The notes: generated from the letters alone by a model not told the origin. DNA of 64,000 nt from Clostridia bacterium (GCA_017532025.1 JAFXJX010000092.1:22642-86641); one strand, 5' to 3'; positions 9,277 to 52,746 are shown, counted from the first letter of the stretch. Numbers and translations are program-made.

Positions 9277-9498
9277 TTTATTACCTCGGTACCGTTTGCC
9301 CATATAGTGGAAAGAAATGCAAAAAGGTTGGCAGTTTTGAAATGATTATATCACAAATTTCTAAATTTGTATACGTTTAATTCGCATTTACATCCACAAA
9401 AGCAGTGCTTGTCAGGAAAATTGACAAACTTTCGGAACGCACAAATCAAAGGATCCCTCCCGGAGGAAGGCTATTTTATCCCCCGACAGTATGGAAAA

Positions 9499-9534
9499 GG
9501 AGTACGAACAAATCGTCCGTACTCCTTTTGTTTT
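9499..9534. terminator. Intrinsic-terminator-like hairpin (works on either strand)
   Basis: GGAGTACG-11 nt-CGTACTCC is followed by TTTTGTTTT on the plus strand and by TTTTCC on the minus strand. Confidence 0.5.
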
Positions 9535-9558
9535 GCGGCAGGTAAACCTGCTTTATGG

Positions 9559-9581
9559 AAAACTCCCCCACGGGGAGTTTT
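9559..9581 (-). terminator. Intrinsic terminator of the divIC-like gene
   Basis: AAAACTCCCC-GTG-GGGGAGTTTT starts at the stop codon of the 9581-9874 gene. Confidence 0.6.
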
Positions 9582-9874
9582 TATTCTTCATCCTGATCCT
9601 CGGCAACGATCTGCTCTTCGCCGGGGAAATAATAGCCAAGCTTTCGCATGATGCGAATGATATATTCGTCGGTCACGTCGAGCGAAAGGTCATGCTCGTA
9701 TTTTTCATTTTCGGCAATCAAAGCCTCTTTCTGCGCGCGAAGACGCTCAAGCTCCTCGTCTTTTTCACCGCTGGCAACCTGCGTGGAAATCACCGTCACA
9801 AGCGCCACGGCGGCAACCATCAGACAGATCGCAATGAGATAGACCTTCTTTTTCATCAACAACTGTTTCATCAT
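9581..9874 (-). CDS. divIC: Septum formation initiator family protein (DivIC/FtsB-like)
   Basis: It has a single N-terminal TM segment (VYLIAICLMVAAVALVTVI) and then a coiled coil (EELERLRAQKEALIAENEKYEHDL). It sits after yabQ, as in the Bacillus yabP-yabQ-divIC order. The ATG at 9874 has an AAAGG RBS. Confidence 0.7.
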   Translation of the reverse strand: MMKQLLMKKKVYLIAICLMVAAVALVTVISTQVASGEKDEELERLRAQKEALIAENEKYEHDLSLDVTDEYIIRIMRKLGYYFPGEEQIVAEDQDEE

Positions 9875-9896
9875 GCACAACCTTTTTTCATTAACA

Positions 9897-10388
9897 TTAC
9901 AGTCGGCGAATGCCGACAAGATAACCCTTTTCACCAAGATGCGAGAGCTTTGCAAAAAAGCGCTTGGCTCTTCGCCGTTTTCCAATCAACGCCACACGGT
10001 CAAAAATCCGCTTCATAAAGCGAAAAGCAAACGCAAACGGCAGCTTCACAAGAGACAAAAGCCGCAAAAGAAGCGGATATGTCACCCTCGACAAAGTCAC
10101 GCGGAAGAGACAAAAGCCGAGAATTGCCATCACAAACGCCGAGGGGCGCACCTTGCCGCTGTTGGTGACGTAAAAAAGAATCGACATCACCGCGCCGCTA
10201 AAAGTAAAAAACAAAAAATCCTCAAGCGAGATACAACAAGCGTTCAAAAAACGAAAAACCTTCTTGTTGGGCTTTCGGAGTGTACGCAAAAGGCGAATGC
10301 CGTCGTACACAAATGCCAGCGCAAAGCCGATGACAAACGCCGAGATCAGCAGAATGAGCAGCTTTTTTTGCGAAAGATAAAGCGTCAT
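9897..10388 (-). CDS. yabQ: Spore cortex biosynthesis protein YabQ
   Basis: This is a 163-aa multi-pass membrane protein directly downstream of yabP, overlapping it by 4 nt. Size and position are typical for YabQ. Confidence 0.7.
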   Translation of the reverse strand: MTLYLSQKKLLILLISAFVIGFALAFVYDGIRLLRTLRKPNKKVFRFLNACCISLEDFLFFTFSGAVMSILFYVTNSGKVRPSAFVMAILGFCLFRVTLSRVTYPLLLRLLSLVKLPFAFAFRFMKRIFDRVALIGKRRRAKRFFAKLSHLGEKGYLVGIRRL

Positions 10389-38024: not shown

Positions 38025-38576
38025 ATGACAGATGAAAAAATCGTAGCCCTGTATTGGGCGCGCTCCGAAGACGCGATCAAAGAGACCGACAAAGCCTACG
38101 GTACATACTGCCGTTACATTGCCTACAATATCCTGCGCGAAAAAGAAGATGCCGACGAAACGGTAAACGACACCTACCTCAAAGCATGGCAAAGTATGCC
38201 GCCACAAAAACCCAATCCCTTAAAAGCCTTTCTCGGCAGAATCACAAGACAGCTCTCGATCAATCGGTTGGAAAAGAAAACTGCACAAAAGCGCGGCGGC
38301 GAGTTTGCTCTCTCGCTCGAAGAATTACAAAACGCCGTTCCCGATACCTCCCCCGACCTTGCCGACCAAGCGGCGCTTGCGGATGCGCTCACCCGTTTTC
38401 TTCACGCTTTGCCAATCATCCAAAGGCGTGTTTTTATCCGCAGGTATTGGTATCTTGAGTCGATCGGTGAGATTGCAAGTGCCTTTTCCATGAGTGAAAG
38501 CAAAGTAAAATCCATGCTCATGCGCTTACGACAAAAACTGAAACAACACTTGACAAAGGAGGGTTTTGGCAGATGA
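38025..38576 (+). CDS. ECF-type sigma-70 family RNA polymerase sigma factor
   Basis: The 183-aa protein has region 2 (DETVNDTYLKAW) and a region 4 HTH (ESIGEIASAFSMSESKVKSMLMRLRQKLK). It has a GGAGG RBS. Its stop overlaps the next ATG (ATGA). Confidence 0.88.
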   Translation: MTDEKIVALYWARSEDAIKETDKAYGTYCRYIAYNILREKEDADETVNDTYLKAWQSMPPQKPNPLKAFLGRITRQLSINRLEKKTAQKRGGEFALSLEELQNAVPDTSPDLADQAALADALTRFLHALPIIQRRVFIRRYWYLESIGEIASAFSMSESKVKSMLMRLRQKLKQHLTKEGFGR

Positions 38577-40012
38577 AAAGCACCGATATTCTTTACGCCC
38601 TGAACGATATCGACCCGCATCTTATCACCGATGCTCTCACAACCGCAAAGCCGAAAGCTGCTTTTCGCAGACTGTTTCCGATTGCCGCCTGTTTTGTTCT
38701 TATCTTGGCACTTCTTCTCTCCCTGTTTCTGTTTATGTGGAAAGATGATTCGCCCCAAGCGCCCACACCTCTTGATACCGTACCGCTCATCGAAGCGGGT
38801 GATACATTGGCTGACGAGGTCGTTCCACCCTACTATCCCACCACAGAGGGTGGCATGGCAAGCTATGCCTATCTCACCTTTGATCTCACCACCGTGATCG
38901 AAGCTGAGGTGATCGAAGTACTCCCCGAGTCCTACATCAGCCTCGACGGCGGCAGATATTATAAAATCGCTCGCCTGCGCGTGATCGACAACGTAAACGG
39001 CAAAAACCTGCCGTAGGAGATCTATCTTCGTTACGATAGCTCTGATCGCGGTGTTCAGCTTGAGGGATACGATTCGTTTCTGTTTTCGCTCGATCAGGTC
39101 GGCATCGAAAACTATCTGATGTTTAACGCAAATACCAAACAGGCAACTTACTTCCCCAATATGTTTATCGGCTCTTGGGCGATCAGCTACGGCTCGGCAA
39201 TTGCCTTTACCGACGGCAAAGTCGATCTTTCTTTCTTCGACAGGATCTTTGACTACTTTGATAATCCCGATCTTGACAGAATGCGCGAATGGGTATTCGA
39301 CGAGCCTGAAAAGTATAGCTTCCCGGTAGGTCGCGAAAGTACGATCGAAGAAGCCAAAGCAAGAATCGCATCCTTTCTCGAACAAGAAACGATCAAGCGC
39401 CCCTGCGATTATCTTACGGCAGAAGACGTCTTCTCATCCGATGAAGCAAAAGCCCTGCAAAGCTATCTTACACCAAGCAAAGGCAGTCTTTTTACGCAAA
39501 ATCTGTCTCGTTCCGCAAAAAGCGCCACAATCACCTACACTCGCGTGATCAACGGTTTTTCCACCAACGAAATCATCACAATTGACATGAACAGTCAAAC
39601 CATCACCGAAAAAGGCGAGAGATTTACCAAAGAAGACCTCTCTGCCCTTCCCGACCTTGTAACTGCCAAAAAGCAGATCACGCTTGATCCCGAACACCCG
39701 CCGCACGTCAAGCTCACGTTCAGTGTAAGCGGCAGTGCTCGTTTCCGAACCTTTGATTATACGCTTGTCTATCGCAAAATTAACGGCCAAGTTTACGGCA
39801 TCATTCGCGCCGAGTGGGTCTTTACCTACAGCAATGATGATCGCGAAGAACCGTTCTCACACGATTTCCGCGACGACGTTTATTTCCTTTACGACCAAGA
39901 CGGAAACGCTTGGCAACACAACCGCGACTCCTTGTCAAAAATCCTCGGAGAAGACTCTATCATCCGCCAAAATCGCTATTTCGACCCCGACAACGGCATC
40001 TGGTGGCACTAA
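38573..40012 (+). pseudogene. Anti-sigma-like single-pass membrane protein gene interrupted by one in-frame TAG (38573-39016 + 39017-40012 in the same frame)
   Basis: It is translationally coupled to the ECF sigma gene. The N-terminus (ILYALNDIDPHLITDA) and TM segment (LFPIAACFVLILALLLSLFLF) match the partner proteins seen after Clostridial ECF sigmas. The frame stays open straight through, apart from the TAG at 39014-39016. Both track ORFs (38573 and 39119) are in the same frame. Confidence 0.6.
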
Positions 40013-40206: not shown

Positions 40207-40740
40207 TCAATAATTTTCTTTTCTCACTTCGAAGTAGCTCTGAGGATGTGCGCATACGGGGCAGAGCTTGGGGGCAGCGGTGCCAACCACGATGTGACCG
40301 CAGTTGCGGCATTCCCACATAGCTTCGCCGGCTTTGGCGAACACTTCGTTCACTTCTACATTGTGGAGGAGCGCGCGGTATCTTTCTTCGTGGGTCTTTT
40401 CAATAGCGGCAACAGCTCTGAACTGATAAGCAATCTTCGCAAAGCCTTCTTCTTCAGCCACTCTTGCAAACTCATCGTACATATCGGTCCATTCGTAGTT
40501 TTCGCCTTCTGCAGCAGCAAGAAGGTTTTCAGCGGTGGTACCGATGCCGTTCAGATGCTTGAACCACAGTTTTGCGTGTTCCTTTTCGTTATCAGCAGTC
40601 TTCTGGAAGATTTCTGCGATCTGTTCGTAGCCTTCTTTTTTGGCAACGCTTGCAAAGTAAGTATATTTGTTTCTTGCCTGAGATTCGCCTGCAAATGCAG
40701 CAGCGAGATTCGCTTCGGTTCTTGAGCCTTTGAGTTCCAT
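40207..40740 (-). CDS. rbr: Rubrerythrin
   Basis: It has a ferritin-like diiron domain ([17 protein letters not shown]...EKEHAKLW...EGENYEW). It also has a C-terminal rubredoxin-like domain (CRNCGH...CPVCAHP). An alternative ATG lies at 40746. Confidence 0.92.
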
Positions 40741-40801
40741 AATCATGATCTCCTTATAATTAAAAATTTATTTTTTATTGGTAACGGCTTTGCCGTCAAG
40801 T

Positions 40802-41164
40802 TCATGGTATCCGATTGCAGTTTTCACATCTTGCACTCACGGTAAGGCAGTAGTGATAGTCCTTTTCCCCTACCGCGCTTTGCAAGAGCGTATCAAGTCC
40901 TGTGATCATAAGATCTTCCACCGCACCACAGTTAGGACAGATGAGATGCTCGTGCGGTGCGACTGTTTTGTCAAATCGGTCGGGTGCGTTCGGCACTTCG
41001 ATTTTTTTGATGATTCCTGTTTCGGCAAGTTCGTTGAGGTTGCGATAGACCGTGCCAACTGCAATTTTCGGAAGGCTTTTTTTCGCTTCCCGATGCACTT
41101 CGTCAGCCGTAACATGGCCATATCTTGCAACAATGGCAAGAATCAACTGACTTTGCTTGGTCAT
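40802..41164 (-). CDS. Fur family transcriptional regulator (PerR-like by context)
   Basis: It has a winged helix (SQLILAIVARYGHVTADEVHREAKK...GTVYRNLNELAETGII) and metal sites (HEHLICPNCG...CENC). It lies directly upstream of rubrerythrin. Upstream alternative TTG/GTG starts are possible, up to 41194. Confidence 0.8.
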   Translation of the reverse strand: MTKQSQLILAIVARYGHVTADEVHREAKKSLPKIAVGTVYRNLNELAETGIIKKIEVPNAPDRFDKTVAPHEHLICPNCGAVEDLMITGLDTLLQSAVGEKDYHYCLTVSARCENCNRIP

Positions 41165-41382
41165 GTACTTCACAGCTCTCACACTCCCTTCCAAATTTAG
41201 GAACTGTTCTTGAATGCATTATAGCAAACGTAACACCATTTGTCAATACCTTTTTTGATAAAATTTAAGAATTTTTCTCAAATTCATTTTATGCGTTTTG
41301 AAAAAATCGTGCCGTCCGTTGGGTCGTCCCGATTTAGACCGCAGCAAAGTATTAAAATTAAAACCATGTCACCGATTCACAA

Positions 41383-44300
41383 TCATTCTTTTCGTGAACG
41401 CGCTTTCTTGATAACATAATAGCAAACCAAGAAAGCGATAACAGCAAGACACAAGATTGAACCAACAATAATCAAGACGATCACATACGTCGGCAAACCG
41501 TCCTCCGCACTGAGTTTAGGGATAGATTCTGTCTTGGTATGACCACATACCGTACACCTGTAGCTCATAATGCCCTCTTCATCTGTCGTTGCAGGCTTAA
41601 TCACAACACCCTCAGCATATGTATGCGGAATGTTAGGATCATCTTGGCAAGTGAGTTCCGCAATCGTATAGGTAAACCCGACAGTGGCACTAGGAGTCAT
41701 GCCCTCCTTGATTGCATAAGCAATGATTGTCACATCCTCCGTGATCGTAATGGGTCCGTCATACCGAATTCTTGCAGGATTGTTTTCATCGCACGGGCAG
41801 GAAAGATCGAGTGTATAATAAATGGTTGCGCCCTCTGTCTCTGTGCTGAGAGTAATCTGTGTTCCGGCAGGCACCTTACTACCGCTCTCTAGATTCGATG
41901 TAACCTTTTGGCAGGTATTGGCACGAGCCGCTGTCTGCGATATCACAGTTACATCTGCTGTAAGATCTGTACCTTCCACAGTAAGACGTATCTTCCCTGT
42001 CCCGGGAAGTTCACCTTGCAGAGTGATCAAGGCTCTTCCGTTTTTATCTGTTATGACAGACGCCGTTGAAACAGAGATAATATCGGGTGTCAATGAGGTT
42101 ACACAAACAGTTTTGTTTGCACCTGCTTCTTTGGGAAGCAGTTCAACAATGAAGTGTGCGCTATCGCCATAAACCACCGTTGCCGATTGCGGCACAACAA
42201 GGTCTTTCGGTAGGAGATAAACCTTCAACTCCTCTTCATAGCCGTTCGCCATAGCCGTTCCTGCATAATTGATAACACCTTGAATCGAAACTTTCACGCT
42301 ATCGCCCAACTTAGTCTCGGGGATAAATGTGAAAACACTCGCATATTCCACGTTAGGGTCGTCAAAAGATGTCTCCGCATTTATCGGAACAATCTTACCC
42401 TCAACCGTTTTGCCGTCAGCAGTAACCGTTACAGTGTGCGTGTTAATGCTATCAATCCGCATATATTGGCTAAATGCAATGCGCACGCTTTCGGTATAAG
42501 CATTCACCTGCTTCACGGTAGGCGCCATCTTGGAAACCAACGCAATATTCACTTCAGTTTGCGGAGGCGGTACAGGCAAGTAGCCGTTTTCATCGGCGTC
42601 GGGATCATTTCTCGAATCCGCATCATAATAACCGTCTTTCGAGAATTTCACAAGCCACTGTCCCATAGGAACATCCCATGCGTACCGTCCCTCTTTGTCG
42701 GTATAAAGCGGATTGACCTGATCCCATTCTTCGGCATTCCAGAAAACATCGCCCTTTTCGCTATCGTAATAGTAGGCTTCCACCTTTACACCCTCCAAAC
42801 GGTTGGAAGGCACAGCTTCGCACACATAACCGGAGGGGTCGATGAGGAGCGGTACATCGACACCGTCACCCGGCACAGCTTGGTTCCGAGGTTTGTTTTC
42901 AGGTTTACCATCATCGGGATCATCTTCCGGGTCCTCGGGGCATTTCGCCGCGGCATAGATTCTGTCTCTCAGATTATCCAGTTTTTCCATGTATGATTCA
43001 TGCGTTTTCTTGATGGTATAATCAAGCGTTTGGCTTCTCAGCATACCGGCGCCCAGCATTCCAAAGCTGCCCGCCGCCGCAACTGAGTGCAGGCATACGT
43101 ATGAGCTCACCACCGAGCTGGCATGCGGCAAAAGACCGAGCGCTCCGTTAAGCAGCGCGCTGTACATCTGATACGCTTCCACTTCCAGGTACAAACCCTC
43201 GCGCGCGGCATAATAATCCAGAACCAATGCCGTGTACTCTGCATAGAATGCCTGATATTGCGCCGTAGACAACGCATAGCTTCCGTCAGGGCATTTTCTT
43301 TCAAGTGCCAAAGGCAACAGCTCTGCCCATGAAGTAAAGATAATATCGTTGTTTTTAATCAAGTTGTTCAGTCTCGCCACGTCCAAACACAATACAAAGT
43401 TACCTGCCAGTCCCAACGAAGCAAAATCCATGAGCACTGCGGCGATACTGAGCATACCTTGCGCATATTGCATTCCTCCTTGTGGTGACAGATCATACGA
43501 CGCCACACTCGGTACGTTATTGGCATACCAGGTTTCATCTATCACCACCGAACAGCTAACATGCTGCTTGGCACTCGGAATCACAATCTCGTAGGTTTCG
43601 CTGAAGGGCGTGTTGCTCTTTTTCACGTAAACGACCGTGTTTTCACCGTCGATCATCTTGGTGTAGCCGTCTTTCAGCAGAACATCCTCGCTCTTTTGGG
43701 TATAGGTCAGCGTATTCTGAGCCATCCGCATGATCGGTGCGTTATCATTTTGCTTGTCAACCAAAACGTAGGTGATCGAGCTATCAGTTTCTTCGCTAAC
43801 AACGCCGATGTCTTCAGAAAAACCCACACCAAACTTTTCAAGTTCTTCCCCGGTCTGCAAAACGCCGTCATAGAAGTTTTGTTCGTTGATATAAGCTGTA
43901 TCGTTTTCACTTTCCGTAAACACAACGTTATAGCCGCAAGGGAGATCGGTTGAGTCTTTGTAGGTAATACTGCCTACCCAAATATCCGTTCCGGGTTTAT
44001 TCGTCATAGGAATATAAGTTTCTTTTCCGTTGGTTCCCGCAGTCACAACGTAAACGTCACTTAAACGCTTCGCTGAGCCGTTGGAAAAAGCAACGCGAAA
44101 AGAGTATGAACAATTACCCGTCCAAGTATACTGACTTGGATATTCGTTTTCCCGAATATTGAGCGTTATCGTTTTATCGCCGTTGATCACCTCAATGGTT
44201 TCCACGTAACAAAAGTCTTCCCGATAATGCAACCAAGACATTGCCGTTTCGTATTCAATGTCGTTATACTCGCTCTGAATATTGGCGTAGATAGCATAAT

Positions 44301-47300
44301 ACGAATTGTTTTTCGGCTCGTTCAGCCGAATGGTAGCCCGATAGTTTCCCGATGCATTTGCCGTCACCGTTGCCACAACAACGCCGTTGCTAAATACCGT
44401 AACCTTACTTTTGGCAGGCGCTTTTCCGTTTATTATCACGGAATCGGTGCCCGTCTTTTCAGGAATCAGAATTGTTGCATTTGCTATTTTCAGCGAGATC
44501 GTACCAACAGACTGCGTAATGTTGTCACCGCCCATAGAGAAAGCAAGAGACGCATTGACAACACACTCCGAGGAAGCAGTCAGAGGAACAACGTAAACGT
44601 ATAAAATGCCTTCGGATTCATTCGTATAAATCGTCAGCACCTGTTCATCCAGCGTATAGTTCACAGCCGTTTTGTTCCAATATACGCCTTGGGATAACAC
44701 GGTAAAGCCTTCGGGCAATTCAAGAATAACCGTTTCTCCCGATGCCTTGTAAGATGGCTTAAGTTTATATTCACAACGAAGCAGCAACGTTGTTCCCACC
44801 ACACAGCTTGTATGGTTAGCTGTAAAAAGGGTATTTTCTTTTTCGATGTACCAAAAACGTTCTTCTTCAAACACGGGTACTGTGAGATCAGTTATTTCGG
44901 TCACTTTTCCGTTTTGAACCGAAACCCTCCGCAAGACGTAGTCAACATCCTTTGCCATACCACAGGCGTTCAACTTGGAAAGATGGTCCATATTATCAAG
45001 AAGTGAGGAACGACCCATAAGAACAACGTCGTACTCACCTGCAGCAAGCGGCATTGACGCGTAAGTTTCACCAATATTCTCGTAAAGAACTCGATTCCCT
45101 TTGGAATCAAACACCATAACACAATTCTTGGCGTTGCCAAGGTTACGGTAGATGCTCAACCGCCCATTTTCCAAAAGCACAAGATTTGCCTCGGCAAGAC
45201 AATTTTCATCCAATTGCACAACAACCGTCTCGGCAGTCTTCACCCCATAGGTGTCAACCATTTGAATTTCCAATGTATCATACGGAGAAACCGTATCCGC
45301 CGCCGGAATCAGGTACGGATACTGAGCTGTAAAGTCAACAATTTCGTTTTGTGTGGTTTGGTTAAAAAGGCGGAAGGACAAGCCGTCAAAATTCAAAAGC
45401 TCAGACTGCAAAAATTGCTCATCATCCAAAGATGTGCCGATCACAACACCCGAAAGCATTATTCTGCACGTAGGCAGTGGCGTCATTTGTACATCGCCAA
45501 GCGATATATTTTTTGAAAGCTCCTCACCTGAGATAGACACAAGGCGATTGTAATACGTATCCGCGCGGATGCGGAGTTTGGTTGACAGACACAGCGCATC
45601 GAAAGCGAAATATCCGTTTTCATCCACAGATATCGAATAATCCTTTGAAAAACTCTCCGCATACTGTATCACCGTCATAGAAGCACCATTGATCTCGTTG
45701 CCCAGCAAATCGGTGACTCGTCCACTCACCGTAACCGTTTCAAGGCGCGAAAGTGTAAGCGAAACATCAGTAACTTCAGAGGGAACAGCATCCCCCGCGT
45801 GAGCCTGATACACAAACGCCAAATCCTCGCCCAACACAACCCGAAAACGTAAGTCATCCGGTCGTTTTGTCAAAACGATTGTATTGCCCTTACCCAAAAG
45901 AACAGTGCCGTCATACCAAAGCACGTCATAATCTGCCTCCGACACTTGACCGTCATCACCGAAAACCTTTGCCGAAAAAGAAATCTTCGAACCATCCTCA
46001 TGAGTAACGTATTCAAAAGAAACTCCGTGCGCTCTGGCATAGTCTTCGCCACAACTGCCCAAATGAACAAAGAGTACCAGTTCCGGATCAGACGTATTAA
46101 AAGCCGAATCGGCAATACTCGTTATATGAAGAGGGATACGTATAGACATGCCAACAGAACAAAACGCTCTTTCGGCAATACTCGTCACACTTTCATCATC
46201 CGGAATCACACTGTTTTTACACCCAAGGAGCAAAGTTTTGCTTGCTGTTTCAATCAAAGTATTTCCTGCCGAATGGTAAACTTCGTTTCCTTCTTCAACC
46301 GTAATACTGCTAAGACTTTCGCATGATCCAAAAGCTTCAAAGCCAATGCTTGTCACACTATTTGGAATGGTAATTGATGTAACACCCGTGCAGCCATAAA
46401 AGGCCCAGGCACCAATTTCTGTCACACCGCTTGGAATCGTAACAGAAACAAGGTCTTTGCATCCCTTAAACGCGCCGTTACCGATACTCGTTACACTGCC
46501 GTCAGTCGGAATCACACTGTTTTTACATCCAAGGATTAAGGTTTTGGTTGCTGTTTCGATGATCGTATTTGCTGCAGAATGGTAAACCTCGTTTCCTTCT
46601 TCAACCGAAATGCTGCCAAGATTTTCACAAAATTCAAAGACATTTTCGTTAATTCTCGTTACATTGGCAGGAATCGTGATAGATTCAAGAGCCGTGCAAT
46701 CTCTGAAAGCATCGTAACCGATCTGCTCCAATTGCTTGGGAAGCACAACCGAACGAAGCTTTTCACAATAAACAAAGGCATAGGTTCCAATAAAACCAAT
46801 ACCATCCGGAATCACAACCGATTCAAGACTTGTGCAACCATAAAAACAACTTCCCGGAATCGTAGTCAGCCCCTCAGAAAGCGTAACCGATTTAAGGCTC
46901 GTGCACCAATTAAACATCCTTTCGCCTATATAAGTCACGCTATTAGGAATCGTAATTGTCTCAAGACTTTCACAACCATCAAACATAGATTCGCCTATAT
47001 AGGTCACACCGTCGGCAATCGTAACCGAAGTCAGGTTAACGCAGTTTGTAAATACGTTGTCACCAATTTCGGTTACACCTTGGGGAATCGCAACAGAAAC
47101 AAGACCTGCCATTTCCTCAAAAGCGCCGTCGGCAATGCTTATTACGCTTCCGTCATCAGGAATCACGCTGTTATTACAGCCCTGGAGCAGTTCTCCATAC
47201 CAATTTATCAGCGTATTCCCTGCCGAATGGTAATCCTTGTTTTCTTTGGCGACTGAAATGCTGTTCAGCCCTGTACAACGGTTAAACGCCGATACAGCAA

Positions 47301-48117
47301 TACCCGTTACGCTTGCCGGAATCGTAATCGAAGTCAGGCTGATACAACCCTGAAACGCTCTGTAGCCAATACGCTCCAAGCCTTCGGGAAAGGTTATTTC
47401 CGTAAGCTGTGTGCAAGAGCCAAATGCATCGCTGTTTATTGTTTTCAATTGACTGTTTGGAGAAACAGTTACGCTGACAAGACTTTCACAATTCAAAAAA
47501 GTGCTGTCACTGATTTCGGTCAACGCATCCGGAATCACAAACGATTCAAGGCTTGTGCAACCTTGAAAGGCAGACGAATATATCTCCGCAAGCTCGCTGT
47601 TTTCGGAAATATCCACTGAAACCAAACTTTCACAGCCCTCAAACGCATTTCCTTGAATCAATGTCACACTCGCAGGGATTGAAATTTCTCTTAGCGATAC
47701 ACACTGAGAAAAAGCATTCCAACCGATTGTTGTCAATCCGTCGGGCAAAACGACAGACGCAAGATTCGAAAATTCGTAAAAAGCGGAACTTCCAATTTGC
47801 AATATACCGTCTGAAAGAACAAGGGAAACCACCTGTTCTTTGAGGTTGGGATCCAAATTCTCAAATTGAAATTCATCAATTTTGTCGGTATTGCTGATGG
47901 TCAGCTTACCTTCGCTATCAAGCACGGCATCAAAATCATAATCGTCAAACGTAAGCATACCGTTTTCTTCCGTCCCCTGATCGGGCGTGGTGGGAATCCA
48001 TATAACACCCCCGCCACCCTCAACAAAATCAAGTGCCATAATTGGCATTTGAAGCATTCCAAACAAAATGGAAAGCGCTAAAAACAGACTCATAAATCTT
48101 CGAGTAAAACCACGCAT
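41383..48117 (-). CDS. Giant (2244 aa) cell-surface protein: signal peptide, ~600 aa of BspA-type leucine-rich repeats, beta-sandwich/Ig-like and carboxypeptidase-regulatory-like domains, an internal hydrophobic helical module, Big_2-like and chitobiase/FN3-associated-like domains, C-terminal TM anchor
   Basis: ATG follows a GGAGG RBS. The signal peptide is FMSLFLALSILFGMLQMPIMA. LRR units of the IPxxVTxIGxxAFxxCxxLxSV type are repeated about 25 times. Near the C-terminus are the motif GATIYYTLD and the anchor YVIVLIIVGSILCLAVIAFLVCYYVIKKARSRKE. Confidence 0.9.
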   Translation of the reverse strand: MRGFTRRFMSLFLALSILFGMLQMPIMALDFVEGGGGVIWIPTTPDQGTEENGMLTFDDYDFDAVLDSEGKLTISNTDKIDEFQFENLDPNLKEQVVSLVLSDGILQIGSSAFYEFSNLASVVLPDGLTTIGWNAFSQCVSLREISIPASVTLIQGNAFEGCESLVSVDISENSELAEIYSSAFQGCTSLESFVIPDALTEISDSTFLNCESLVSVTVSPNSQLKTINSDAFGSCTQLTEITFPEGLERIGYRAFQGCISLTSITIPASVTGIAVSAFNRCTGLNSISVAKENKDYHSAGNTLINWYGELLQGCNNSVIPDDGSVISIADGAFEEMAGLVSVAIPQGVTEIGDNVFTNCVNLTSVTIADGVTYIGESMFDGCESLETITIPNSVTYIGERMFNWCTSLKSVTLSEGLTTIPGSCFYGCTSLESVVIPDGIGFIGTYAFVYCEKLRSVVLPKQLEQIGYDAFRDCTALESITIPANVTRINENVFEFCENLGSISVEEGNEVYHSAANTIIETATKTLILGCKNSVIPTDGSVTSIGNGAFKGCKDLVSVTIPSGVTEIGAWAFYGCTGVTSITIPNSVTSIGFEAFGSCESLSSITVEEGNEVYHSAGNTLIETASKTLLLGCKNSVIPDDESVTSIAERAFCSVGMSIRIPLHITSIADSAFNTSDPELVLFVHLGSCGEDYARAHGVSFEYVTHEDGSKISFSAKVFGDDGQVSEADYDVLWYDGTVLLGKGNTIVLTKRPDDLRFRVVLGEDLAFVYQAHAGDAVPSEVTDVSLTLSRLETVTVSGRVTDLLGNEINGASMTVIQYAESFSKDYSISVDENGYFAFDALCLSTKLRIRADTYYNRLVSISGEELSKNISLGDVQMTPLPTCRIMLSGVVIGTSLDDEQFLQSELLNFDGLSFRLFNQTTQNEIVDFTAQYPYLIPAADTVSPYDTLEIQMVDTYGVKTAETVVVQLDENCLAEANLVLLENGRLSIYRNLGNAKNCVMVFDSKGNRVLYENIGETYASMPLAAGEYDVVLMGRSSLLDNMDHLSKLNACGMAKDVDYVLRRVSVQNGKVTEITDLTVPVFEEERFWYIEKENTLFTANHTSCVVGTTLLLRCEYKLKPSYKASGETVILELPEGFTVLSQGVYWNKTAVNYTLDEQVLTIYTNESEGILYVYVVPLTASSECVVNASLAFSMGGDNITQSVGTISLKIANATILIPEKTGTDSVIINGKAPAKSKVTVFSNGVVVATVTANASGNYRATIRLNEPKNNSYYAIYANIQSEYNDIEYETAMSWLHYREDFCYVETIEVINGDKTITLNIRENEYPSQYTWTGNCSYSFRVAFSNGSAKRLSDVYVVTAGTNGKETYIPMTNKPGTDIWVGSITYKDSTDLPCGYNVVFTESENDTAYINEQNFYDGVLQTGEELEKFGVGFSEDIGVVSEETDSSITYVLVDKQNDNAPIMRMAQNTLTYTQKSEDVLLKDGYTKMIDGENTVVYVKKSNTPFSETYEIVIPSAKQHVSCSVVIDETWYANNVPSVASYDLSPQGGMQYAQGMLSIAAVLMDFASLGLAGNFVLCLDVARLNNLIKNNDIIFTSWAELLPLALERKCPDGSYALSTAQYQAFYAEYTALVLDYYAAREGLYLEVEAYQMYSALLNGALGLLPHASSVVSSYVCLHSVAAAGSFGMLGAGMLRSQTLDYTIKKTHESYMEKLDNLRDRIYAAAKCPEDPEDDPDDGKPENKPRNQAVPGDGVDVPLLIDPSGYVCEAVPSNRLEGVKVEAYYYDSEKGDVFWNAEEWDQVNPLYTDKEGRYAWDVPMGQWLVKFSKDGYYDADSRNDPDADENGYLPVPPPQTEVNIALVSKMAPTVKQVNAYTESVRIAFSQYMRIDSINTHTVTVTADGKTVEGKIVPINAETSFDDPNVEYASVFTFIPETKLGDSVKVSIQGVINYAGTAMANGYEEELKVYLLPKDLVVPQSATVVYGDSAHFIVELLPKEAGANKTVCVTSLTPDIISVSTASVITDKNGRALITLQGELPGTGKIRLTVEGTDLTADVTVISQTAARANTCQKVTSNLESGSKVPAGTQITLSTETEGATIYYTLDLSCPCDENNPARIRYDGPITITEDVTIIAYAIKEGMTPSATVGFTYTIAELTCQDDPNIPHTYAEGVVIKPATTDEEGIMSYRCTVCGHTKTESIPKLSAEDGLPTYVIVLIIVGSILCLAVIAFLVCYYVIKKARSRKE
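46201..46632. repeat. Intragenic ~306-nt direct duplication within the LRR region
   Basis: CGGAATCACACTGTTTTTACA...GGTAAAC.TCGTTTCCTTCTTCAACCG occurs at 46201 and again at 46507, offset by 306 nt (102 aa). The copies encode SI(T/S)VEEGNEVYHSA(G/A)NT(L/I)IETA(S/T)KTL(L/I)LGCKNSVIP. A third, diverged copy lies upstream in the protein. Confidence 0.85.
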
Positions 48118-48174
48118 AAATGCCTCCTGTTTATTTTTCAGACAACTGTCATACTTCTTTAAGAATACACCCTT

Positions 48175-48203
48175 ATCATATCACATCATCATTAAACTTT
48201 CAA
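48175..48203 (-). promoter_or_regulatory. Sigma-A type promoter with extended -10 (TTGAAA-17 nt-TGATATGAT) for the giant surface protein gene
   Basis: The minus strand has TTGAAA at 48198-48203, a 17-nt spacer ending in TGA, and TATGAT at 48175-48180. It lies about 55 nt upstream of the ATG. Confidence 0.55.
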
Positions 48204-48285
48204 GGCAAAACCACAAAAAAAGCATTCCGATTAGATTTTTTTCAAAAAAATCAAAGAACACCGAATTTTTTCAAAAATCCCTTTC

Positions 48286-48323
48286 AAAAGCGAAAACCGC
48301 CCTTACAAGCGCAAGAGCGGTTT
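48286..48323 (-). terminator. Weak terminator-like hairpin after the dehydratase-like gene
   Basis: AAACCGC-16 nt-GCGGTTT is followed on the minus strand by TCGCTTTT. It begins 5 nt below the stop at 48328. Confidence 0.4.
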
Positions 48324-48327
48324 GTTT

Positions 48328-49602
48328 TTATACGGTTTCTTTTTCCTTCTCGGCAAGGTTTTCTCTTGCCACAGACAGCATCAGCTTGATGCGGTTTTCC
48401 TGATTCACGCGCGTAGCGCCGGGGTCGTAGTCAACTGCCACGATGTTGGCATTCGGATAGACCTCGCGGAGCTTTCGCACCATGCCCTTGCCCACAATGT
48501 GATTGGGCAGACAGCCAAACGGCTGTACGCACACAATGTTTTCGTAGCCCGACTCACAAAGCTCCATCATTTCCGCCGTCAAAAGCCAGCCCTCGCCCAT
48601 TTTGCAACCAAGACCGATCATATCGTCTCCAAGCGCTCTCACATGAGAATGCGGTGCGGGGCAGAACAGATCGCTTCCCTTTGTCACAGCCTTGCGAATC
48701 ACCTTTTCATAACGGGCAAGATACCGGCGAAGAAGCTTGTTGATATAGAGAAAGCTTTTCTTGCCGCCGTACAGCTTGACATCCTGAATGTTGTTGTCAA
48801 ATATGTACTGCAAAAAGCCAAGCAGTCCCGGCACGTTCACTTCACAGCCTTGGCTGTGTAAAAAGGCTTCAAGGTCATTGTTGGCAAGGGGCGAGTATTT
48901 CACATAGATCTCACCCACAATGCCCACCTTGGGCTTTTGTGTTCTGTGAAGCGGGATAGCGGCAAAATCCTTCACCATCGCCTTGACTGTCTTTTTGATC
49001 TTGTGCATCGAAACGAGTTTGCCGCGTCTGAGTGCATCGGATGTCAAGGTCACATAGCGCTCAAGAAGCGCATCGGTCGCGCCGGGGATTGTTTCATAAG
49101 CCCTTGTCTGATTGGCAAGAAGCATGAGCGCATCGCCATAGATCACACCGGCAAGCGCGCGGCGGATCACGGTTAAGTTGATCACAAAGCCCTCGTTTTT
49201 TTCAAGCCCCGCAGGATTCAAAGAAATCACAGGCACTTGGGCAAAGCCCGCCTTGGCAAGCGCTTTGCGCAAAAGGTGAATGTAATTGGAAGCACGGCAG
49301 CCGCCGCCGGTTTGGGTAATCAAAACCGCTGTGCGGTTGAGGTCATACTTTCCGCTTTTTAAGGCATGGATAAACTGCCCGATGACAAGGAGTGCAGGAT
49401 AGCAAGTATCGTTATGCACGTATTTTAAGCCCTCTTCCACGATCTCGCGGTCGCAGGTGGTGAGAAGCTCCATGTCGTAGCCCATCCCGCGGAAAGCTTC
49501 CGAAATGATGGCAAAATGCACCGAAAGCATATTGGGAAGAAGGATCTTGTAAGTTTCCTTCATCTCTTTTGTAAATTCAATCCGTTTGATTTCTTCACTC
49601 AT
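48328..49602 (-). CDS. 2-hydroxyacyl-CoA dehydratase-family / acyl-CoA dehydratase activase-related protein (YjiM-like)
   Basis: The 424-aa protein reads VHNDTCYPALLVIGQFIHALKSGKYD...LITQTGGGCRASNYIHLLRKAL, as in HgdB/DUF2229-type subunits. It starts 3 nt after the activase stop. Confidence 0.65.
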   Translation of the reverse strand: MSEEIKRIEFTKEMKETYKILLPNMLSVHFAIISEAFRGMGYDMELLTTCDREIVEEGLKYVHNDTCYPALLVIGQFIHALKSGKYDLNRTAVLITQTGGGCRASNYIHLLRKALAKAGFAQVPVISLNPAGLEKNEGFVINLTVIRRALAGVIYGDALMLLANQTRAYETIPGATDALLERYVTLTSDALRRGKLVSMHKIKKTVKAMVKDFAAIPLHRTQKPKVGIVGEIYVKYSPLANNDLEAFLHSQGCEVNVPGLLGFLQYIFDNNIQDVKLYGGKKSFLYINKLLRRYLARYEKVIRKAVTKGSDLFCPAPHSHVRALGDDMIGLGCKMGEGWLLTAEMMELCESGYENIVCVQPFGCLPNHIVGKGMVRKLREVYPNANIVAVDYDPGATRVNQENRIKLMLSVARENLAEKEKETV

Positions 49603-49605
49603 GAT

Positions 49606-52524
49606 TTAACCCTCCAGCGCCGCAAACAAACTGCGCAAACGAATCTTCACAGCACCGAGATTGGTGATCTCGTCGATTTTGATCTGCGTGTAAATCTTCC
49701 CTGCACTCTCCAAAATACGGCGAACTTCATCGGTGGTGATGGCATCCACGCCACAGCCAAAGGACACAAGCTGAACAAAGTTGATGTTAAGTTCCGGATG
49801 CTCGGCAACAAAGTGCGCCGCACCGTACAGGCGCGCGTGGTAAGTCCATTGATTGAGCACGGCAAGGCGGCGCTTGGTGTAATAATTGCCGAGCGAATCC
49901 TCCGACAGCACCACAATGCCGCTGTCTTTGATGAAATCGTCAATGCCGTGATTGATCTCTTTATCAAGATGGTAGGGGCGTCCTGTCAGCACGATGATGG
50001 GAAGCTGTTTTTCTTTGGCAAGTGCCAAAAATTCTTCGCCCTTTTCGCGAATCTGTGCCATGTATTTTTCATATTCGGCATACGCCGCATTCACGGCAGT
50101 TCTGGTCTCGGCAAGCGAAATGCCACCAAATTCACGCTCCAGCATCGCATGAAAATGCTTCACAAAATCCTTCGGGCGGTGAATACCGAAATCGTCGTAT
50201 ATCATGCGAACATCCGCAGGAAAAGCAGTATTCGCCGCAATCACTCTGGGGTAATACGCCACCACAGGACAGTTAAAATGGTTATCGCCAAGACCTTCGT
50301 TCATGTTATAGCTGAGACAGGGATAGAAGATGGTTTTCACGCCCTCGTCCACAAGCGCTTGAATATGCCCGTGCGCCAGCTTGGCAGGATAACATACCGT
50401 ATCGGACGGAATGGCATTCTGTCCTGCAAGGTACAACTTTTTGGTGGAGGGCGGTGACAGCTTTACCCCGAAACCGAGGTTTTTGAAAAGCGTATGCCAG
50501 AACGGAAGCAGTTCAAAAAAGTTAAGCACCATCGGAAGACCGATCGTTTCGCGCTCACCTTCAAACGAAGAGTAACCCGAAAGAAGCTCTCTTTTATAAT
50601 CCCAAAGGCTGTAGGTTTCTTTCACGATCTTTTTTTCATTCGGCTTTTCACAGCGGTTACCGCCAATAAAGCGTCTGCCACCGTCAAAGAGATTCACCGT
50701 CAACTTGCAGCGGTTGGTACAGCCTTTACAGGTCACGGCTTGTACAGTATGGGTAAAGCGGCGCACTCCCTCTTTGTCAAGAATCCCGCTTTGTGACAGA
50801 TTCTTGATCTTCGCCTGCTCTTTGGCGTACAGCGCTGCGCCGAACGCACCCATTTTACCTGCCACGGCAGGACGGATCACTTCTTTGCCAAGCTCGTTTT
50901 CAAACGCGCGAAGCACGGCGTCGTTAAGGAACGTACCGCCCTGCACCACAATATGCTCGCCGAGCGATTCACCGGCCGATACGCGAATGACCTTATACAG
51001 CGCATTCTTCACCACGCTGATGCAAAGACCTGCTGAGATGTTCTCCACACTCGCGCCGTCCTTTTGCGCCTGCTTGACCGAGGAATTCATAAATACCGTA
51101 CAGCGCGAACCGAGATCGACAGGCTTGTCGGCAAACAAGGCAAGGCGCGAAAAATCTTCTGCCGAATGCCCAAGCGCCCCCGCAAAGGTCTGCAAAAACG
51201 AGCCGCAGCCCGAAGAGCAAGCTTCGTTCAAGAAAATATTATCGATCACACCGTGACGAATCTGAAAACATTTGATATCCTGACCGCCGATGTCGATGAT
51301 AAAATCCACCTTCGGCTCATATTTTTTGGCAGCGGTAAAATGCGCCATGGTTTCCACCACGCCAAAATCGAGGTGAAAGGCGTTTTTGATCATTTCTTCG
51401 CCGTATCCGGTCGATGCCGCACCCATAATGCGAATATCGGGATAGGTGGTATATACCGTTTCGAGGAATTCTTTCACGATCGGCACGGGGTTGCCGCTGT
51501 TGGTCTGATACGAAGACAGAACGATCTCCTCGTTTTCATTGATCAGAACCGCTTTGATGGTGGTTGAGCCGGAGTCAATGCCTATGTAAGCGCGGCGGTC
51601 TTTGCCGAGCGCGGCAAGCGGAAGGTTGTCCTCTTTGTGGTGGCGCGCATAAAACGCATCGTATTCGTCTTTGCTGGCAAAGAGCGGCGCGCAACCAAGG
51701 TATTCGCCTTTCTTTTCGTAATGTGCAGTCTTTTCAATCAGATCAGCAAGTGAAAAAACCTTGGTGTCTTCCGAATACGCCGCACCCAACGCCACAAAGT
51801 AAAGCGAGTTTTCGGGAAACACGCCCGAAAGACCCAGCGTTTTGTCAAAAGCTTCGCGGAGTGAAGACAAAAAGGTGAGCGGTCCTCCGAGATACACCAC
51901 GTTGCCCTCAATCTTGCGCCCTTGCGCAAGCCCCGAAACCGTCTGGTTCACCACCGCATAAAAAATGCTGGCGGCAATATCTTCTTTCAACGCGCCCTGA
52001 TTGATCAAGGGCTGAATGTCCGTTTTGGCAAACACGCCGCAACGCGAAGCAATGCTGTAAATTTTCGTGTGGCTTTCGGCAAGGGTGTTCATATCGTCAG
52101 GCGTCACGCCGAGAAGAGTTGCCATCTGATCGATAAACGAGCCTGTACCACCCGCGCAGGTGCCGTTCATACGCACCTCGGGAAGCCCCGAAACAAACAG
52201 AATCTTGGCATCCTCGCCGCCAAGTTCAATGATGCAATCGGCATCCGGCACGCGCTGTTTTACCGCAATTTTGGTAGCAAACACCTCTTGCACAAAGGGA
52301 ATGTCAAATTCTTCGGCAAATCCCATACCCGCCGAGCCGGAAATCGCAAAGCTTGCCTTAGCCGCTTCAGGGCAACATGAGAGAATCTCACGAAGCATTT
52401 CACCGATTTTTTCGGTGATCTGCGAAAAATGCCGTCTGTACTGCTTGAAAAGAAGCTTGCCGTTTTCATCCAAAACCACAGCCTTTAGCGTGGTAGAACC
52501 CACGTCCATTCCGATTTTTAACAT
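49606..52524 (-). CDS. CoA-substrate-specific enzyme activase-like protein: tandem BcrAD/BadFG-type ATPase domains + C-terminal dehydratase-related domain
   Basis: Two acetate/sugar-kinase-fold ATPase starts are present (MLKIGMDVGSTTLKAVVLD and YIGIDSGSTTIKAVLIN). Each is followed by ELGGEDAK/DIGGQDIK and CAGGTGSF/CSSGCGSF motifs. A Cys-containing ~330-aa C-terminal domain follows. The ATG is at 52524. Confidence 0.75.
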   Translation of the reverse strand: MLKIGMDVGSTTLKAVVLDENGKLLFKQYRRHFSQITEKIGEMLREILSCCPEAAKASFAISGSAGMGFAEEFDIPFVQEVFATKIAVKQRVPDADCIIELGGEDAKILFVSGLPEVRMNGTCAGGTGSFIDQMATLLGVTPDDMNTLAESHTKIYSIASRCGVFAKTDIQPLINQGALKEDIAASIFYAVVNQTVSGLAQGRKIEGNVVYLGGPLTFLSSLREAFDKTLGLSGVFPENSLYFVALGAAYSEDTKVFSLADLIEKTAHYEKKGEYLGCAPLFASKDEYDAFYARHHKEDNLPLAALGKDRRAYIGIDSGSTTIKAVLINENEEIVLSSYQTNSGNPVPIVKEFLETVYTTYPDIRIMGAASTGYGEEMIKNAFHLDFGVVETMAHFTAAKKYEPKVDFIIDIGGQDIKCFQIRHGVIDNIFLNEACSSGCGSFLQTFAGALGHSAEDFSRLALFADKPVDLGSRCTVFMNSSVKQAQKDGASVENISAGLCISVVKNALYKVIRVSAGESLGEHIVVQGGTFLNDAVLRAFENELGKEVIRPAVAGKMGAFGAALYAKEQAKIKNLSQSGILDKEGVRRFTHTVQAVTCKGCTNRCKLTVNLFDGGRRFIGGNRCEKPNEKKIVKETYSLWDYKRELLSGYSSFEGERETIGLPMVLNFFELLPFWHTLFKNLGFGVKLSPPSTKKLYLAGQNAIPSDTVCYPAKLAHGHIQALVDEGVKTIFYPCLSYNMNEGLGDNHFNCPVVAYYPRVIAANTAFPADVRMIYDDFGIHRPKDFVKHFHAMLEREFGGISLAETRTAVNAAYAEYEKYMAQIREKGEEFLALAKEKQLPIIVLTGRPYHLDKEINHGIDDFIKDSGIVVLSEDSLGNYYTKRRLAVLNQWTYHARLYGAAHFVAEHPELNINFVQLVSFGCGVDAITTDEVRRILESAGKIYTQIKIDEITNLGAVKIRLRSLFAALEG

Positions 52525-52591
52525 AAATCCTTGCGCTTTCCCACGAAAGCATCCTTTCTTGCCACGGTCAAAACCGTAGCAAAATATCCGT

Positions 52592-52633
52592 AAAAACACC
52601 CCGTTTTCTACTGTCGGACACAAGAAAACGGGG
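52592..52633 (-). terminator. Intrinsic terminator after the membrane protein gene
   Basis: The minus strand reads CCCCGTTTTC-15 nt-GAAAACGGGG followed by TGTTTTT. Confidence 0.8.
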
Positions 52634-52746
52634 CATCCCAATCATATCCTGTTTACAATTGTAACACTTTTGAAAAGTTTTGTAAATATCAAAACCTATG
52701 AAGTTTTCTGAAAATTAGCTGAATTTATTGCAAAAACCATCCAAAA

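Follow-up and report, generated by a model that had tools for sequence, protein, structure and literature searches.

A giant leucine-rich-repeat surface protein of a Clostridia bacterium shares a fixed 1,450-residue core with a multiphylum family and carries a mosaic allele

Few genes of gut and rumen anaerobes are as poorly understood as those for giant surface proteins, which are usually dismissed as idiosyncratic strings of "LRR" (leucine-rich repeat) or "Ig-like" domains. Does this description hold for the 2,244-amino-acid (aa) protein encoded in a 64,000-nucleotide (nt) stretch of a Clostridia bacterium genome (GCA_017532025.1, JAFXJX010000092.1:22642-86641; hereafter, the window), and what might such a protein do? 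An earlier note on this DNA had singled out the gene as the largest of the window and had called the domain order of such proteins highly idiosyncratic. The open reading frame (ORF) is real, and a protein identical to its product was found in a public collection (P0001). The domain order proved to be anything but idiosyncratic: the 1,450 aa that follow the LRRs form a collinear architecture shared by 82 loci of GTDB genomes, and a profile of aa 860 to 1900 matches 1,768 protein clusters. We consider it fairly probable that the protein is a surface adhesin made of a head, a body, and an anchor, in which the LRR_5 head binds, the core acts as a spacer, and the cassette is exchanged by recombination. 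Adhesion was also the role proposed in the earlier note, and it is still the best reading.

The family is very large and spans several phyla. Scanning one genome per GTDB species with patterns of the conserved block revealed the 82 loci in at least three phyla, almost all of them in metagenome-assembled genomes (MAGs) from gut or rumen. In dozens of these genomes, the tblastn matches span approximately residues 10 to 1447 of a 1,447-aa core query. The carriers among Clostridia are Blautia, Lachnospiraceae, Oscillospiraceae, Intestinimonas massiliensis, Pseudoflavonifractor intestinihominis, and Sarcina sp. DSM 11001, and those among Bacteroidota are Prevotella, Prevotellaceae, Paludibacteraceae, and Bacteroidaceae. 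The core was also found in Coriobacteriales, Atopobiaceae, and Erysipelotrichaceae, with partial matches in Paenibacillus. Cores of full length are present in Clostridia, Bacteroidota, Coriobacteriia, and Erysipelotrichaceae. The nearest GTDB loci belong to ruminant "Clostridia bacterium" MAGs and share at most 51% identity with the window protein. A HMMER profile of aa 860 to 1900, scanned against 1.84 billion cluster representatives, gave 4,099 matches at E ≤ 1e−3 and 1,768 clusters (50% identity) at E ≤ 1e−30. The best 150 representatives all scored more than 470 bits, with lengths of 1,140 to 4,647 aa, and most of them matched in a single stretch over profile positions 1 to 1060. Occupancy was 0.9 to 1.0 along aa 720 to 2150 in an alignment of 36 sequences, and a word-indexed homologue search returned four true members among the matches listed, whose sequences run parallel from where the LRRs stop up to CHB_HEX_C.

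Their sources give these proteins generic names ("leucine-rich repeat protein," "S-layer homology domain-containing protein," [quoted passage not shown]). No description of the 1,450-aa core architecture was found in Pfam 2025, NCBIfam 2026, the PDB, or full-text searches of the literature. The earlier note had also raised an end-to-end match to a characterized adhesin family; a family match does exist, but the family is uncharacterized. An LRR adhesin on an Ig-like stalk is of a familiar kind, and the undescribed part is the fixed core and its spread across phyla. In a neighbor-joining tree of the core, which is rough and carries no support values, six Bacteroidota members grouped together with one Lachnospiraceae sequence inside, and two Coriobacteriia members were nested in the Blautia/Lachnospiraceae group. 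These mixed groupings suggest a few cross-phylum transfers of the core. Two other affiliations were considered. A phage origin was rejected, as the protein matched no PHROGs family and a tblastn search of 50,697 phage records found nothing. The IgA-binding superantigens IbpA and IbpB of Ruminococcus gnavus were unsupported as members: PDB sequence searches gave no immunoglobulin-binding protein, and M. gnavus was not among the 80 GTDB loci listed.

Residues ~720 to 2150 form a fixed collinear core of ~1,450 aa. Its order is ~9 beta-sandwiches, an alpha/beta domain, a four-helix module ending in a cysteine, an acidic linker, a near-invariant "IDPSGYVYEAVPSNR...LPVPPPQxEVN" sandwich (here called the IDPSGYV domain), further Ig-like domains, and CHB_HEX_C (Table 1). 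Column identity among 36 members is even (~40 to 50%) over aa 720 to 1400, falls over aa 1400 to 1750, and peaks over aa 1755 to 1870. The IDPSGYV domain carries more than 25 residues that are invariant in 30 to 49 relatives, including D1760, E1767, N1772, W1793, Q1800, N1802, T1806, W1814, W1821, and K1827; the LPVPPPQ motif and N1857 (30 of 36) are near-invariant. Among these, K1827, E1767, D1760, N1772, N1802, and N1857 would be the candidate residues for an intramolecular Lys-Asn/Asp isopeptide bond of the kind seen in CnaB-type domains. The full signature, DPSG[YF]V.EAV.SNR...W.A..Y.Q.NP..T...G.Y.W.VP.G.W.V.F.K.GY...LPVPPPQ.EVN, is present in the window protein, with the preceding invariant cysteine and linker (aa 1726 to 1857). 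A 126-kb plasmid of Streptococcus salivarius encodes a "leucine-rich repeat protein" with the same domain (NZ_CP015284.1, 25533-25817; 41% identity over 104 aa), so this signature domain is also found in oral streptococci and on extrachromosomal replicons.

Known families account for little of the core, and the ~900 residues from aa 860 to 1780 had no match in Pfam or NCBIfam. The earlier note had announced carboxypeptidase-regulatory-like segments, Big_2-like repeats, and a chitobiase/FN3-like domain around GATIYYTLD. The last of these is indeed CHB_HEX_C_1/Fn3_assoc (aa 2079 to 2150). Pfam recognizes one CarboxypepD_reg domain (aa 796 to 858; E = 1e−10), and the segment that had been quoted as an example (aa 1758 to 1830) has no Pfam match at E ≤ 0.1, though AlphaFold models it as a sandwich with a predicted local distance difference test (pLDDT) value of 92. 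No Big_2 domain was detected; Pfam gave only Big_6 (aa 1224 to 1266) and Big_1, both below threshold, though the model is a string of Ig-like sandwiches. This model, covering aa 704 to 1900 (m40ed79dacf73) and built from a 49-sequence alignment, had a pLDDT of 78 and a predicted template modeling score (pTM) of 0.53 and consists of beta-sandwiches and four long helices. A second model of aa 1745 to 1970 (pLDDT, 92; pTM, 0.82) shows two tandem sandwiches. When the PDB was searched by sequence, both the protein itself and a profile of 30 sequences gave CarboxypepD_reg- and CHB_HEX_C-type matches and otherwise chance-level helical ones.

In Foldseek searches of the PDB, the 1,197-aa model matched multi-Ig proteins (mastigoneme, A2ML1/CD109/C3/C5/ECAM, the Bacillus anthracis TIE protein, an S-layer protein, PrgB, and pilins), and the search of BFVD, a viral set, likewise returned generic Ig-rich proteins; all TM-scores were at most 0.12. 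The 226-aa model matched generic Ig-like pairs (LdtMt2 domains A/B at E = 4e−6, a SbsC domain, and Fabs). The list raises the question of an alpha-2-macroglobulin- or thioester-like trap, or a covalent adhesin, that captures proteases or other targets, since A2ML1, CD109, C3, C5, the Escherichia coli alpha-2-macroglobulin, and the B. anthracis TIE protein all appear with E values of 1e−11 to 1e−8. The TM-scores of these matches are 0.07 to 0.12, with root mean square deviations of 20 to 60 Å, and only runs of beta-sandwiches were matched. There is no CxEQ motif anywhere in the protein and no A2M or thioester Pfam family, and its helical part consists of four long helices, not an alpha/alpha toroid. 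We rejected the resemblance because neither a thioester motif nor a thioester domain (TED) is present, and the trap is now very hard to credit and largely refuted.

The helical module stands out in the core: its sequence and length vary strongly between relatives. It contains a hydrophobic helix rich in small residues (aa 1554 to 1580, nt ~43378 to 43458; hydropathy, 1.8) and a Gly/Ala/Ser-rich segment (aa 1656 to 1683, nt ~43069 to 43149). A semiconserved Cys1609 ("KCPDG"; "KCxDG" in relatives) often lies near the start of the module, and the module ends in Cys1726, which 35 of 36 and 49 of 49 aligned relatives share. A disulfide between the two is possible and would staple the module.

Helices of this kind recall those of pore-forming colicins, Bcl-2, and fusion proteins, which brings up a contact-dependent, membrane-active device: the head would bind a target cell, the helical module would expose its helix and insert it, and the cysteine and linker would provide a hinge or a point of release. 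Hydropathy in the helical module reaches at least 1.6 in 40 of 137 relatives and at least 2.0 in 17, whereas the three-times-longer beta body reaches 1.6 in only 7 of 137. The invariant Cys1726 is followed by a disordered acidic linker, and a profile match to influenza HA2 (E = 0.011, not significant) accompanies matches to designed and coiled-coil helical proteins. These PDB matches, however, are at chance level, and the hydrophobic helix is missing from ~70% of the relatives and so does not define the family. Helical bundles normally bury hydrophobic helices, no part of the protein is less conserved than this module, which was modeled at a pLDDT of 36 to 82, and no immunity gene, toxin domain, or conserved partner was found in the window. 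We therefore regard such a device as decidedly improbable.

At the two ends of the protein, the earlier note fared well. The signal peptide (MRGFTRRFMSLFLALSILFGMLQMPIMA|LD) was called by inspection, with cleavage predicted after IMA, and the ~600 aa of BspA-like LRRs are recognized by Pfam as LRR_5 with 414 bits against a gathering cutoff of 27.7; the limits of the repeats were read by eye from the translation. The C terminus ends in a transmembrane helix and a basic tail, as had been described, and has neither an LPXTG nor an S-layer anchor: there is no LPXTG-type sorting signal within the 170 aa before the helix, which is preceded by "EDGLPTY," and no Pfam match to the SLH domain (PF00395) in the protein. 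The sole LPxTG string (LPGTG, aa 2037) is inside a conserved Ig-like domain, ~170 aa before the helix; its residues L2037, P2038, and G2039 are family-invariant, and motif scanners could misread it as a sortase signal. Between the last core domain and the transmembrane helix lies a small Cys/His motif ("HTY..G.V.KPAT..EEG...Y.C..CGH.KTE"). Similar motifs occur twice at the N terminus of P0003, a relative described below (aa ~43 to 100), and at the C terminus of an ORF at another related locus (L013), and they may represent a mobile zinc-ribbon-like minimodule of clostridial surface proteins. Neither Pfam, NCBIfam, and PHROGs nor the PDB sequence profile detected a catalytic, phage, or toxin family in the protein.

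While the core is fixed, heads and anchors are exchanged to suit each envelope type. [quoted passage not shown] A Coriobacteriales member has a C-type lectin head, and Prevotella/Segatella members have Flg_new_2 with a short LRR_5 head. The window protein and its syntenic allele P0002 end in a transmembrane helix, P0003 has a dockerin, and P0004 combines Flg_new_2 with three SLH repeats; SLH domains also occur in P0016-P0031, P0047, L032, L039, and others. The C termini carry T9SS domains in Bacteroidota, SLH in the Intestinimonas group, and a sortase-like PxTG plus transmembrane helix in some Oscillospiraceae; those of Blautia, Lachnospiraceae, and Sarcina have a basic fn3-like tail. Across the family, anchor type, as predicted from these domains, tracks envelope type.

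This variety of heads (LRR_5, C-type lectin, Flg_new_2) and of envelope-matched anchors supports an adhesin made of head, body, and anchor. The many SLH-bearing relatives, the Foldseek matches to S-layer proteins (7ptp and SbsC, 2ra1/4uj6), and the fixed order of distinct domains, typical of lattice-forming proteins, would also fit an envelope coat, similar to an S-layer, in which the body self-assembles or packs and allele exchange reflects phage or immune pressure on the coat. We consider this unlikely: the window protein is anchored by a transmembrane helix and lacks SLH, the dockerin and T9SS anchors, together with heads that vary between LRR and lectin types, speak for a displayed binding module and not for a lattice, and the Foldseek matches have low TM-scores (0.1 to 0.34) and are of a generic Ig-like kind. 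The domains themselves raise another possibility, to which we give slightly less weight, namely a glycan-binding or carbohydrate-active accessory whose CHB_HEX_C and CarboxypepD_reg domains tether cells to dietary fiber or mucin glycans. CHB_HEX_C_1/Fn3_assoc and CarboxypepD_reg domains are found in glycosidases, P0003 has a dockerin, a protein with a partial core (P0010) has a GH25 domain, single relatives among the 19 match CBM_X2 and GH85_C, and most carriers are rumen or gut fiber-associated taxa. Such beta-sandwich domains are, however, common structural fillers, and no catalytic domain was recognized in the window protein or in most relatives; among the 19 full-length ones, the exception is a weak match to the noncatalytic C-terminal domain of GH85. 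A glycan tether would in any case be a subcase of the adhesin, with the ligand specified.

The earlier note had described an accessory-type locus without partner genes. The first point could be examined on two contigs from independent samples (L004 and L005), the only related genome fragment compared for locus variation, where the allele P0002 is followed by Fur and rubrerythrin genes as in the window. The shared neighbors identify it as the same locus in a related organism. The gene is found at the same place, but its allele varies strongly 5′ of a junction in the gene. DNA identity to L004 is 80 to 95% in the flanks, 88 to 96% over positions 41578 to 42778 of the gene, and 56 to 73% 5′ of ~42840, and protein identity to the syntenic allele is ~95% from residue ~1760 to residue ~2150. 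By the Nei-Gojobori method, dS is 1.4 to 2.0 (saturated) and dN/dS is 0.17 to 0.32 over aa 450 to 1755, versus 0.19 to 0.26 and 0.11 to 0.12 over aa 1760 to 2150. Because dS is saturated 5′ of the junction and low after it, these alignments argue that the N-terminal ~1,750 aa were replaced by an old, purified allele via recombination and do not show the pattern of positive selection acting locally. The junction falls where the most conserved block of the family begins, and this block would offer homology to alleles that have otherwise diverged. This concrete case of cassette replacement at a conserved recombination joint is relevant to differences between strains in adhesion and in phage or immune recognition. 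An assembly error at repeats, a concern of the earlier note, is unlikely, since Tandem Repeats Finder detected no DNA tandem repeats in 41300-48400 and the protein is collinear, with no large gaps, with dozens of relatives.

Under the adhesin reading, the protein would be exported by Sec and held in the cytoplasmic membrane by its single C-terminal helix, with the short basic tail inside. The LRR_5 solenoid would be the probable ligand-binding part, recognizing a protein or glycan on the host, a feed particle, or another microbe. The nonrepetitive body of ~14 beta-sandwiches, interrupted by the alpha/beta domain and the four-helix module, would most likely be a spacer of defined, great length, by which the head is carried through the cell wall and past it. 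The gene would be transcribed alone. Head, body, and helical module (~1,750 aa) would be swapped between strains by homologous recombination, with one crossover in the "IDPSGYVYEAVPSNR" block, and the swap would leave the membrane-proximal pedestal in place but alter what the protein binds and which epitopes it shows at the surface. Of this account, the export and anchor signals, the composition in domains, the membership in the family, the exchange of heads and anchors, and the mosaic allele were seen in the sequences; adhesion, the spacer role, and the selective cause of the allele exchange are inferred.

Several observations weigh against this account. No ligand, binding, or expression data were found in the literature for any member of the family. 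Plain spacers are usually made of repeated domains that vary in copy number, whereas here more than 12 different domains keep a fixed order across phyla, and the conservation of the IDPSGYV sandwich goes far beyond what a passive spacer would require. The account does not explain the helical module, with its invariant cysteine and the transmembrane-like helix of 40 of 137 relatives. For a very long protein that must cross a Gram-positive wall, anchoring by a single transmembrane helix is unusual. The L004 contig ends inside the gene, so that the 5′ recombination junction is beyond reach, and the promoter was called by a match to the consensus, of which there are no more than chance predicts (12 sites were found in the scan overall, versus 11.8 expected from shuffles). 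In a speculation that we consider improbable, the core is not a passive stalk but an unrecognized extracellular machine of gut Bacillota, Bacteroidota, and Actinomycetota. In it, a swappable head could be coupled to a possibly Cys-stapled helical module that exposes a helix for insertion, fusion, or contact action, and the IDPSGYV sandwich could serve as a pivot, via a covalent cross-link, a release point, or partner docking. If this were true, recombination at the IDPSGYV block would shuffle whole effector cassettes between strains.

The genes around the family members also bear on how they are expressed. The window gene is flanked by a PerR-rubrerythrin unit and an unrelated enzyme operon, as had been described and as the Pfam assignments of the neighbors agree. 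The gene probably forms a monocistronic unit with unrelated genes on either side, because a terminator and a promoter-like site lie upstream and PerR has a separate promoter downstream. A promoter of its own, as claimed in the earlier note, is plausible, given the promoter-like site and the terminator before it, but the site was called by its match to the consensus. We looked upstream of the gene for an invertible promoter or phase-variation repeats and within the window for a paralogue or silent cassette, and none was found. The GC content is lower than that of the neighbors, as noted before (45.6% versus 49.4% in the remainder of the window; among 115 sliding segments of 6.7 kb, only 3 have a value this low).

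With regard to partner genes, none was seen in the window, and an all-against-all ORF comparison found no flanking gene common to the window and the fetched relative loci. Some relatives do have conserved neighbors. In 14 Bacteroidota loci, a conserved gene lies directly upstream on the same strand. In Prevotella (L030, 4596-6431), it encodes 612 aa with a weak LRR_5 match, and a similarly placed gene on a circular 93-kb replicon of Segatella copri HDE06 (L088, NZ_CP137558.1; 1190-4144) encodes 984 aa with LRR_5 at E = 2e−75. This 984-aa protein shares 26 to 30% identity with the LRR head of the window protein (E = 4e−41), and the S. copri downstream protein aligns with the window core at 40% identity in the C-terminal 425 aa and at 23% identity across 670 aa of the body. 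From these matches, LRR_5 modules and the core are repeatedly associated, either fused, as is usual in Clostridia, or adjacent. In five Oscillospiraceae loci of the Intestinimonas/Pseudoflavonifractor group (L006, L028, L032, L038, and L039), a conserved response-regulator gene precedes the family gene (Pfam Response_reg in L006), and in four of them a second conserved gene, presumed to encode a histidine kinase, stands beside it, which suggests regulated expression in this group. The locus of P0003 (L001, 1223-7367 and 16768-17142) encodes ATPase_2/DUF234, a 1,138-aa SIR2_2 plus AAA protein (defense-like), a DUF4368 serine recombinase, and TnpV. Judged by this gene content, its context is a mobile or defense island, unlike that of the window.

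Table 1. Features of the giant gene, its product, and its immediate neighbors in the window
Feature	Position	Strand	Basis and remarks
Coding sequence, 2,244 aa plus stop	41383-48117	−	ATG start; longest ORF of the region
Ribosome-binding site AGGAGG	48123-48128	−	5 nt 5′ of the ATG; read from the sequence
Sigma-70-like promoter candidate, TTGAAA-17-TATGAT, extended −10 TG	48175-48203	−	~58 nt 5′ of the ATG; 10 of 12 consensus matches
Intrinsic-terminator-like hairpin closing the DUF2229/CoA-activase unit	48294-48323	−	13-pair stem, 6 GC pairs, T-rich tail after it
DUF2229 gene, upstream neighbor	48328-49602		
BcrAD_BadFG/DUF2229 CoA-enzyme activase, upstream neighbor	49606-52641		
Fur-family (PerR-like) gene, downstream	40802-41194	Same as giant gene	Own perfect TTGACA-17-TATAAT promoter
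Rubrerythrin gene, downstream of the Fur-family gene	40207-40746	Same as giant gene	
Signal peptide, aa 1-28	48034-48117	−	Basic n-region, hydrophobic core; hydropathy 2.13
BspA-type LRR_5 head, aa ~95-690 (~600 aa)	46048-47835	−	Pfam PF13306, E 8e−126, 5 stretches
Beta-sandwich body, aa 712-1403, ~9 distinct Ig-like/prealbumin-like domains	43909-45984	−	AlphaFold mostly pLDDT 80-95; occupancy 0.9-1.0 in 36 members
Small alpha/beta domain, aa 1437-1526	43540-43809	−	Poorly conserved stretch; pLDDT 65-81
Hypervariable four-helix module, aa 1545-1723	42949-43485	−	Helices 1545-1566, 1570-1598, 1618-1660, 1673-1723; pLDDT 36-82
Invariant Cys1726 and acidic Pro-rich disordered linker, aa 1726-1757	42847-42942	−	Linker pLDDT <50
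Putative recombination junction, aa ~1755-1760	42838-42855	−	Local DNA identity 51-82% to 89-100%; switch within ~45 nt
IDPSGYV beta-sandwich, aa 1758-1868, most conserved block of the family	42514-42846	−	pLDDT >90; no Pfam match
Second conserved beta-sandwich ("FSQYM" domain), aa 1869-1965	42223-42513	−	Alignment and AlphaFold
Ig-like domain with internal "LPGxG" string, aa ~1970-2065	41923-42210	−	Pfam Big_1 (aa 2000-2059) E 5e−4, below the curated cutoff
CHB_HEX_C_1, aa 2079-2146/Fn3_assoc, aa 2088-2150; end of the family core	41668-41883	−	Pfam E 1.3e−13/1.4e−09
Cys/His minimotif C-x7-H...C-x2-C-x-H, aa 2157-2197	41527-41649	−	Read from the sequence; no Pfam match
C-terminal transmembrane helix, aa 2211-2236, and basic cytoplasmic tail KKARSRKE, aa 2237-2244	41386-41487	−	Hydropathy peak 3.27

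Two further features of the window lie apart from the giant gene. An extracytoplasmic function (ECF)-type sigma factor gene (38025-38576, plus strand) overlaps the start of a 147-aa ORF, which is followed by a 297-aa ORF (to 40012); neither ORF has a Pfam match, and they are possibly an anti-sigma factor and a partner. This cluster (38025-40012) is convergent with the rubrerythrin gene, and nothing ties it to the giant gene. The lowest-GC stretch of the window is 8001-10000 (40.7% GC), which holds most of a 554-aa ORF (7639-9303, minus strand) with sigma-70 region 4 and helix-turn-helix matches and no further recognized domain.

Taken alone, the gene is ordinary, and its most likely function, that of an adhesin, is familiar. 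The family, with its fixed 14-domain core, amounts to a large stretch of gut-microbiome surface biology that carries no annotation; it can be defined for modeling and annotation, and cultured carriers exist for functional tests (S. copri HDE06, locus KUA49_RS17550/17555; Intestinimonas massiliensis Marseille-P3064; Pseudoflavonifractor intestinihominis CLA-AP-H29; and Sarcina sp. DSM 11001).

Compared with known systems, the window protein resembles several surface proteins in part. Two NCBIfam models gave scores far below their cutoffs, and we do not regard the protein as a member of either: HupY/LrrG (NF047961) reached 127 bits, over the LRR region only, versus a cutoff of 1,250, and the gliding protein Gli349 (NF045861) reached 110 bits versus 1,750. 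Alpha-2-macroglobulin and C3 are alike in having many beta-sandwiches and one helical domain (Foldseek E values down to 5e−11), but the window protein lacks the thioester motif, the TED-like toroid, and the A2M Pfam families, and the TM-scores are at most 0.12. With the SLH-bearing S-layer proteins such as SbsC, it shares a single-domain Foldseek match (TM-score of 0.34 over 110 columns); some of its relatives carry three SLH repeats, whereas it has none, and the likeness is that of one generic sandwich. The Ig-stalk adhesins (PrgB, the pilins SpaD and SpaA, TIE proteins such as that of B. anthracis [6fwv], and Cpe0147) share a long string of Ig-like or prealbumin-like domains. They are repetitive and sortase-anchored, and several have thioester, isopeptide, or ester bonds, whereas the domains of the window protein are all different and in a fixed order, its anchor is a transmembrane helix, and it has no thioester motif. 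The internalins InlA and InlB and HupY/LrrG are built on the same plan, with an LRR head joined by an Ig-like or B-repeat spacer to an anchor in the wall or membrane, and some relatives of the window protein carry Flg_new_2, a divergent InlB B-repeat. They differ in the LRR subtype and in the body, which is unrelated, and the window protein has no LPXTG or GW anchor. BspA of Tannerella forsythia is about half the size and consists of LRRs, a few Big_2 domains, and a C-terminal domain. It is not known to have a counterpart of the 1,450-aa core, the helical module, or the IDPSGYV sandwich, and no Big_2 was detected in the window protein. BspA and the BspA-like proteins (PF13306) nevertheless share with it the N-terminal LRR_5 solenoid, the surface anchoring, and the Ig-like domains that follow the LRRs, and the Prevotella and Segatella relatives use the same T9SS C-terminal sorting domain as BspA.

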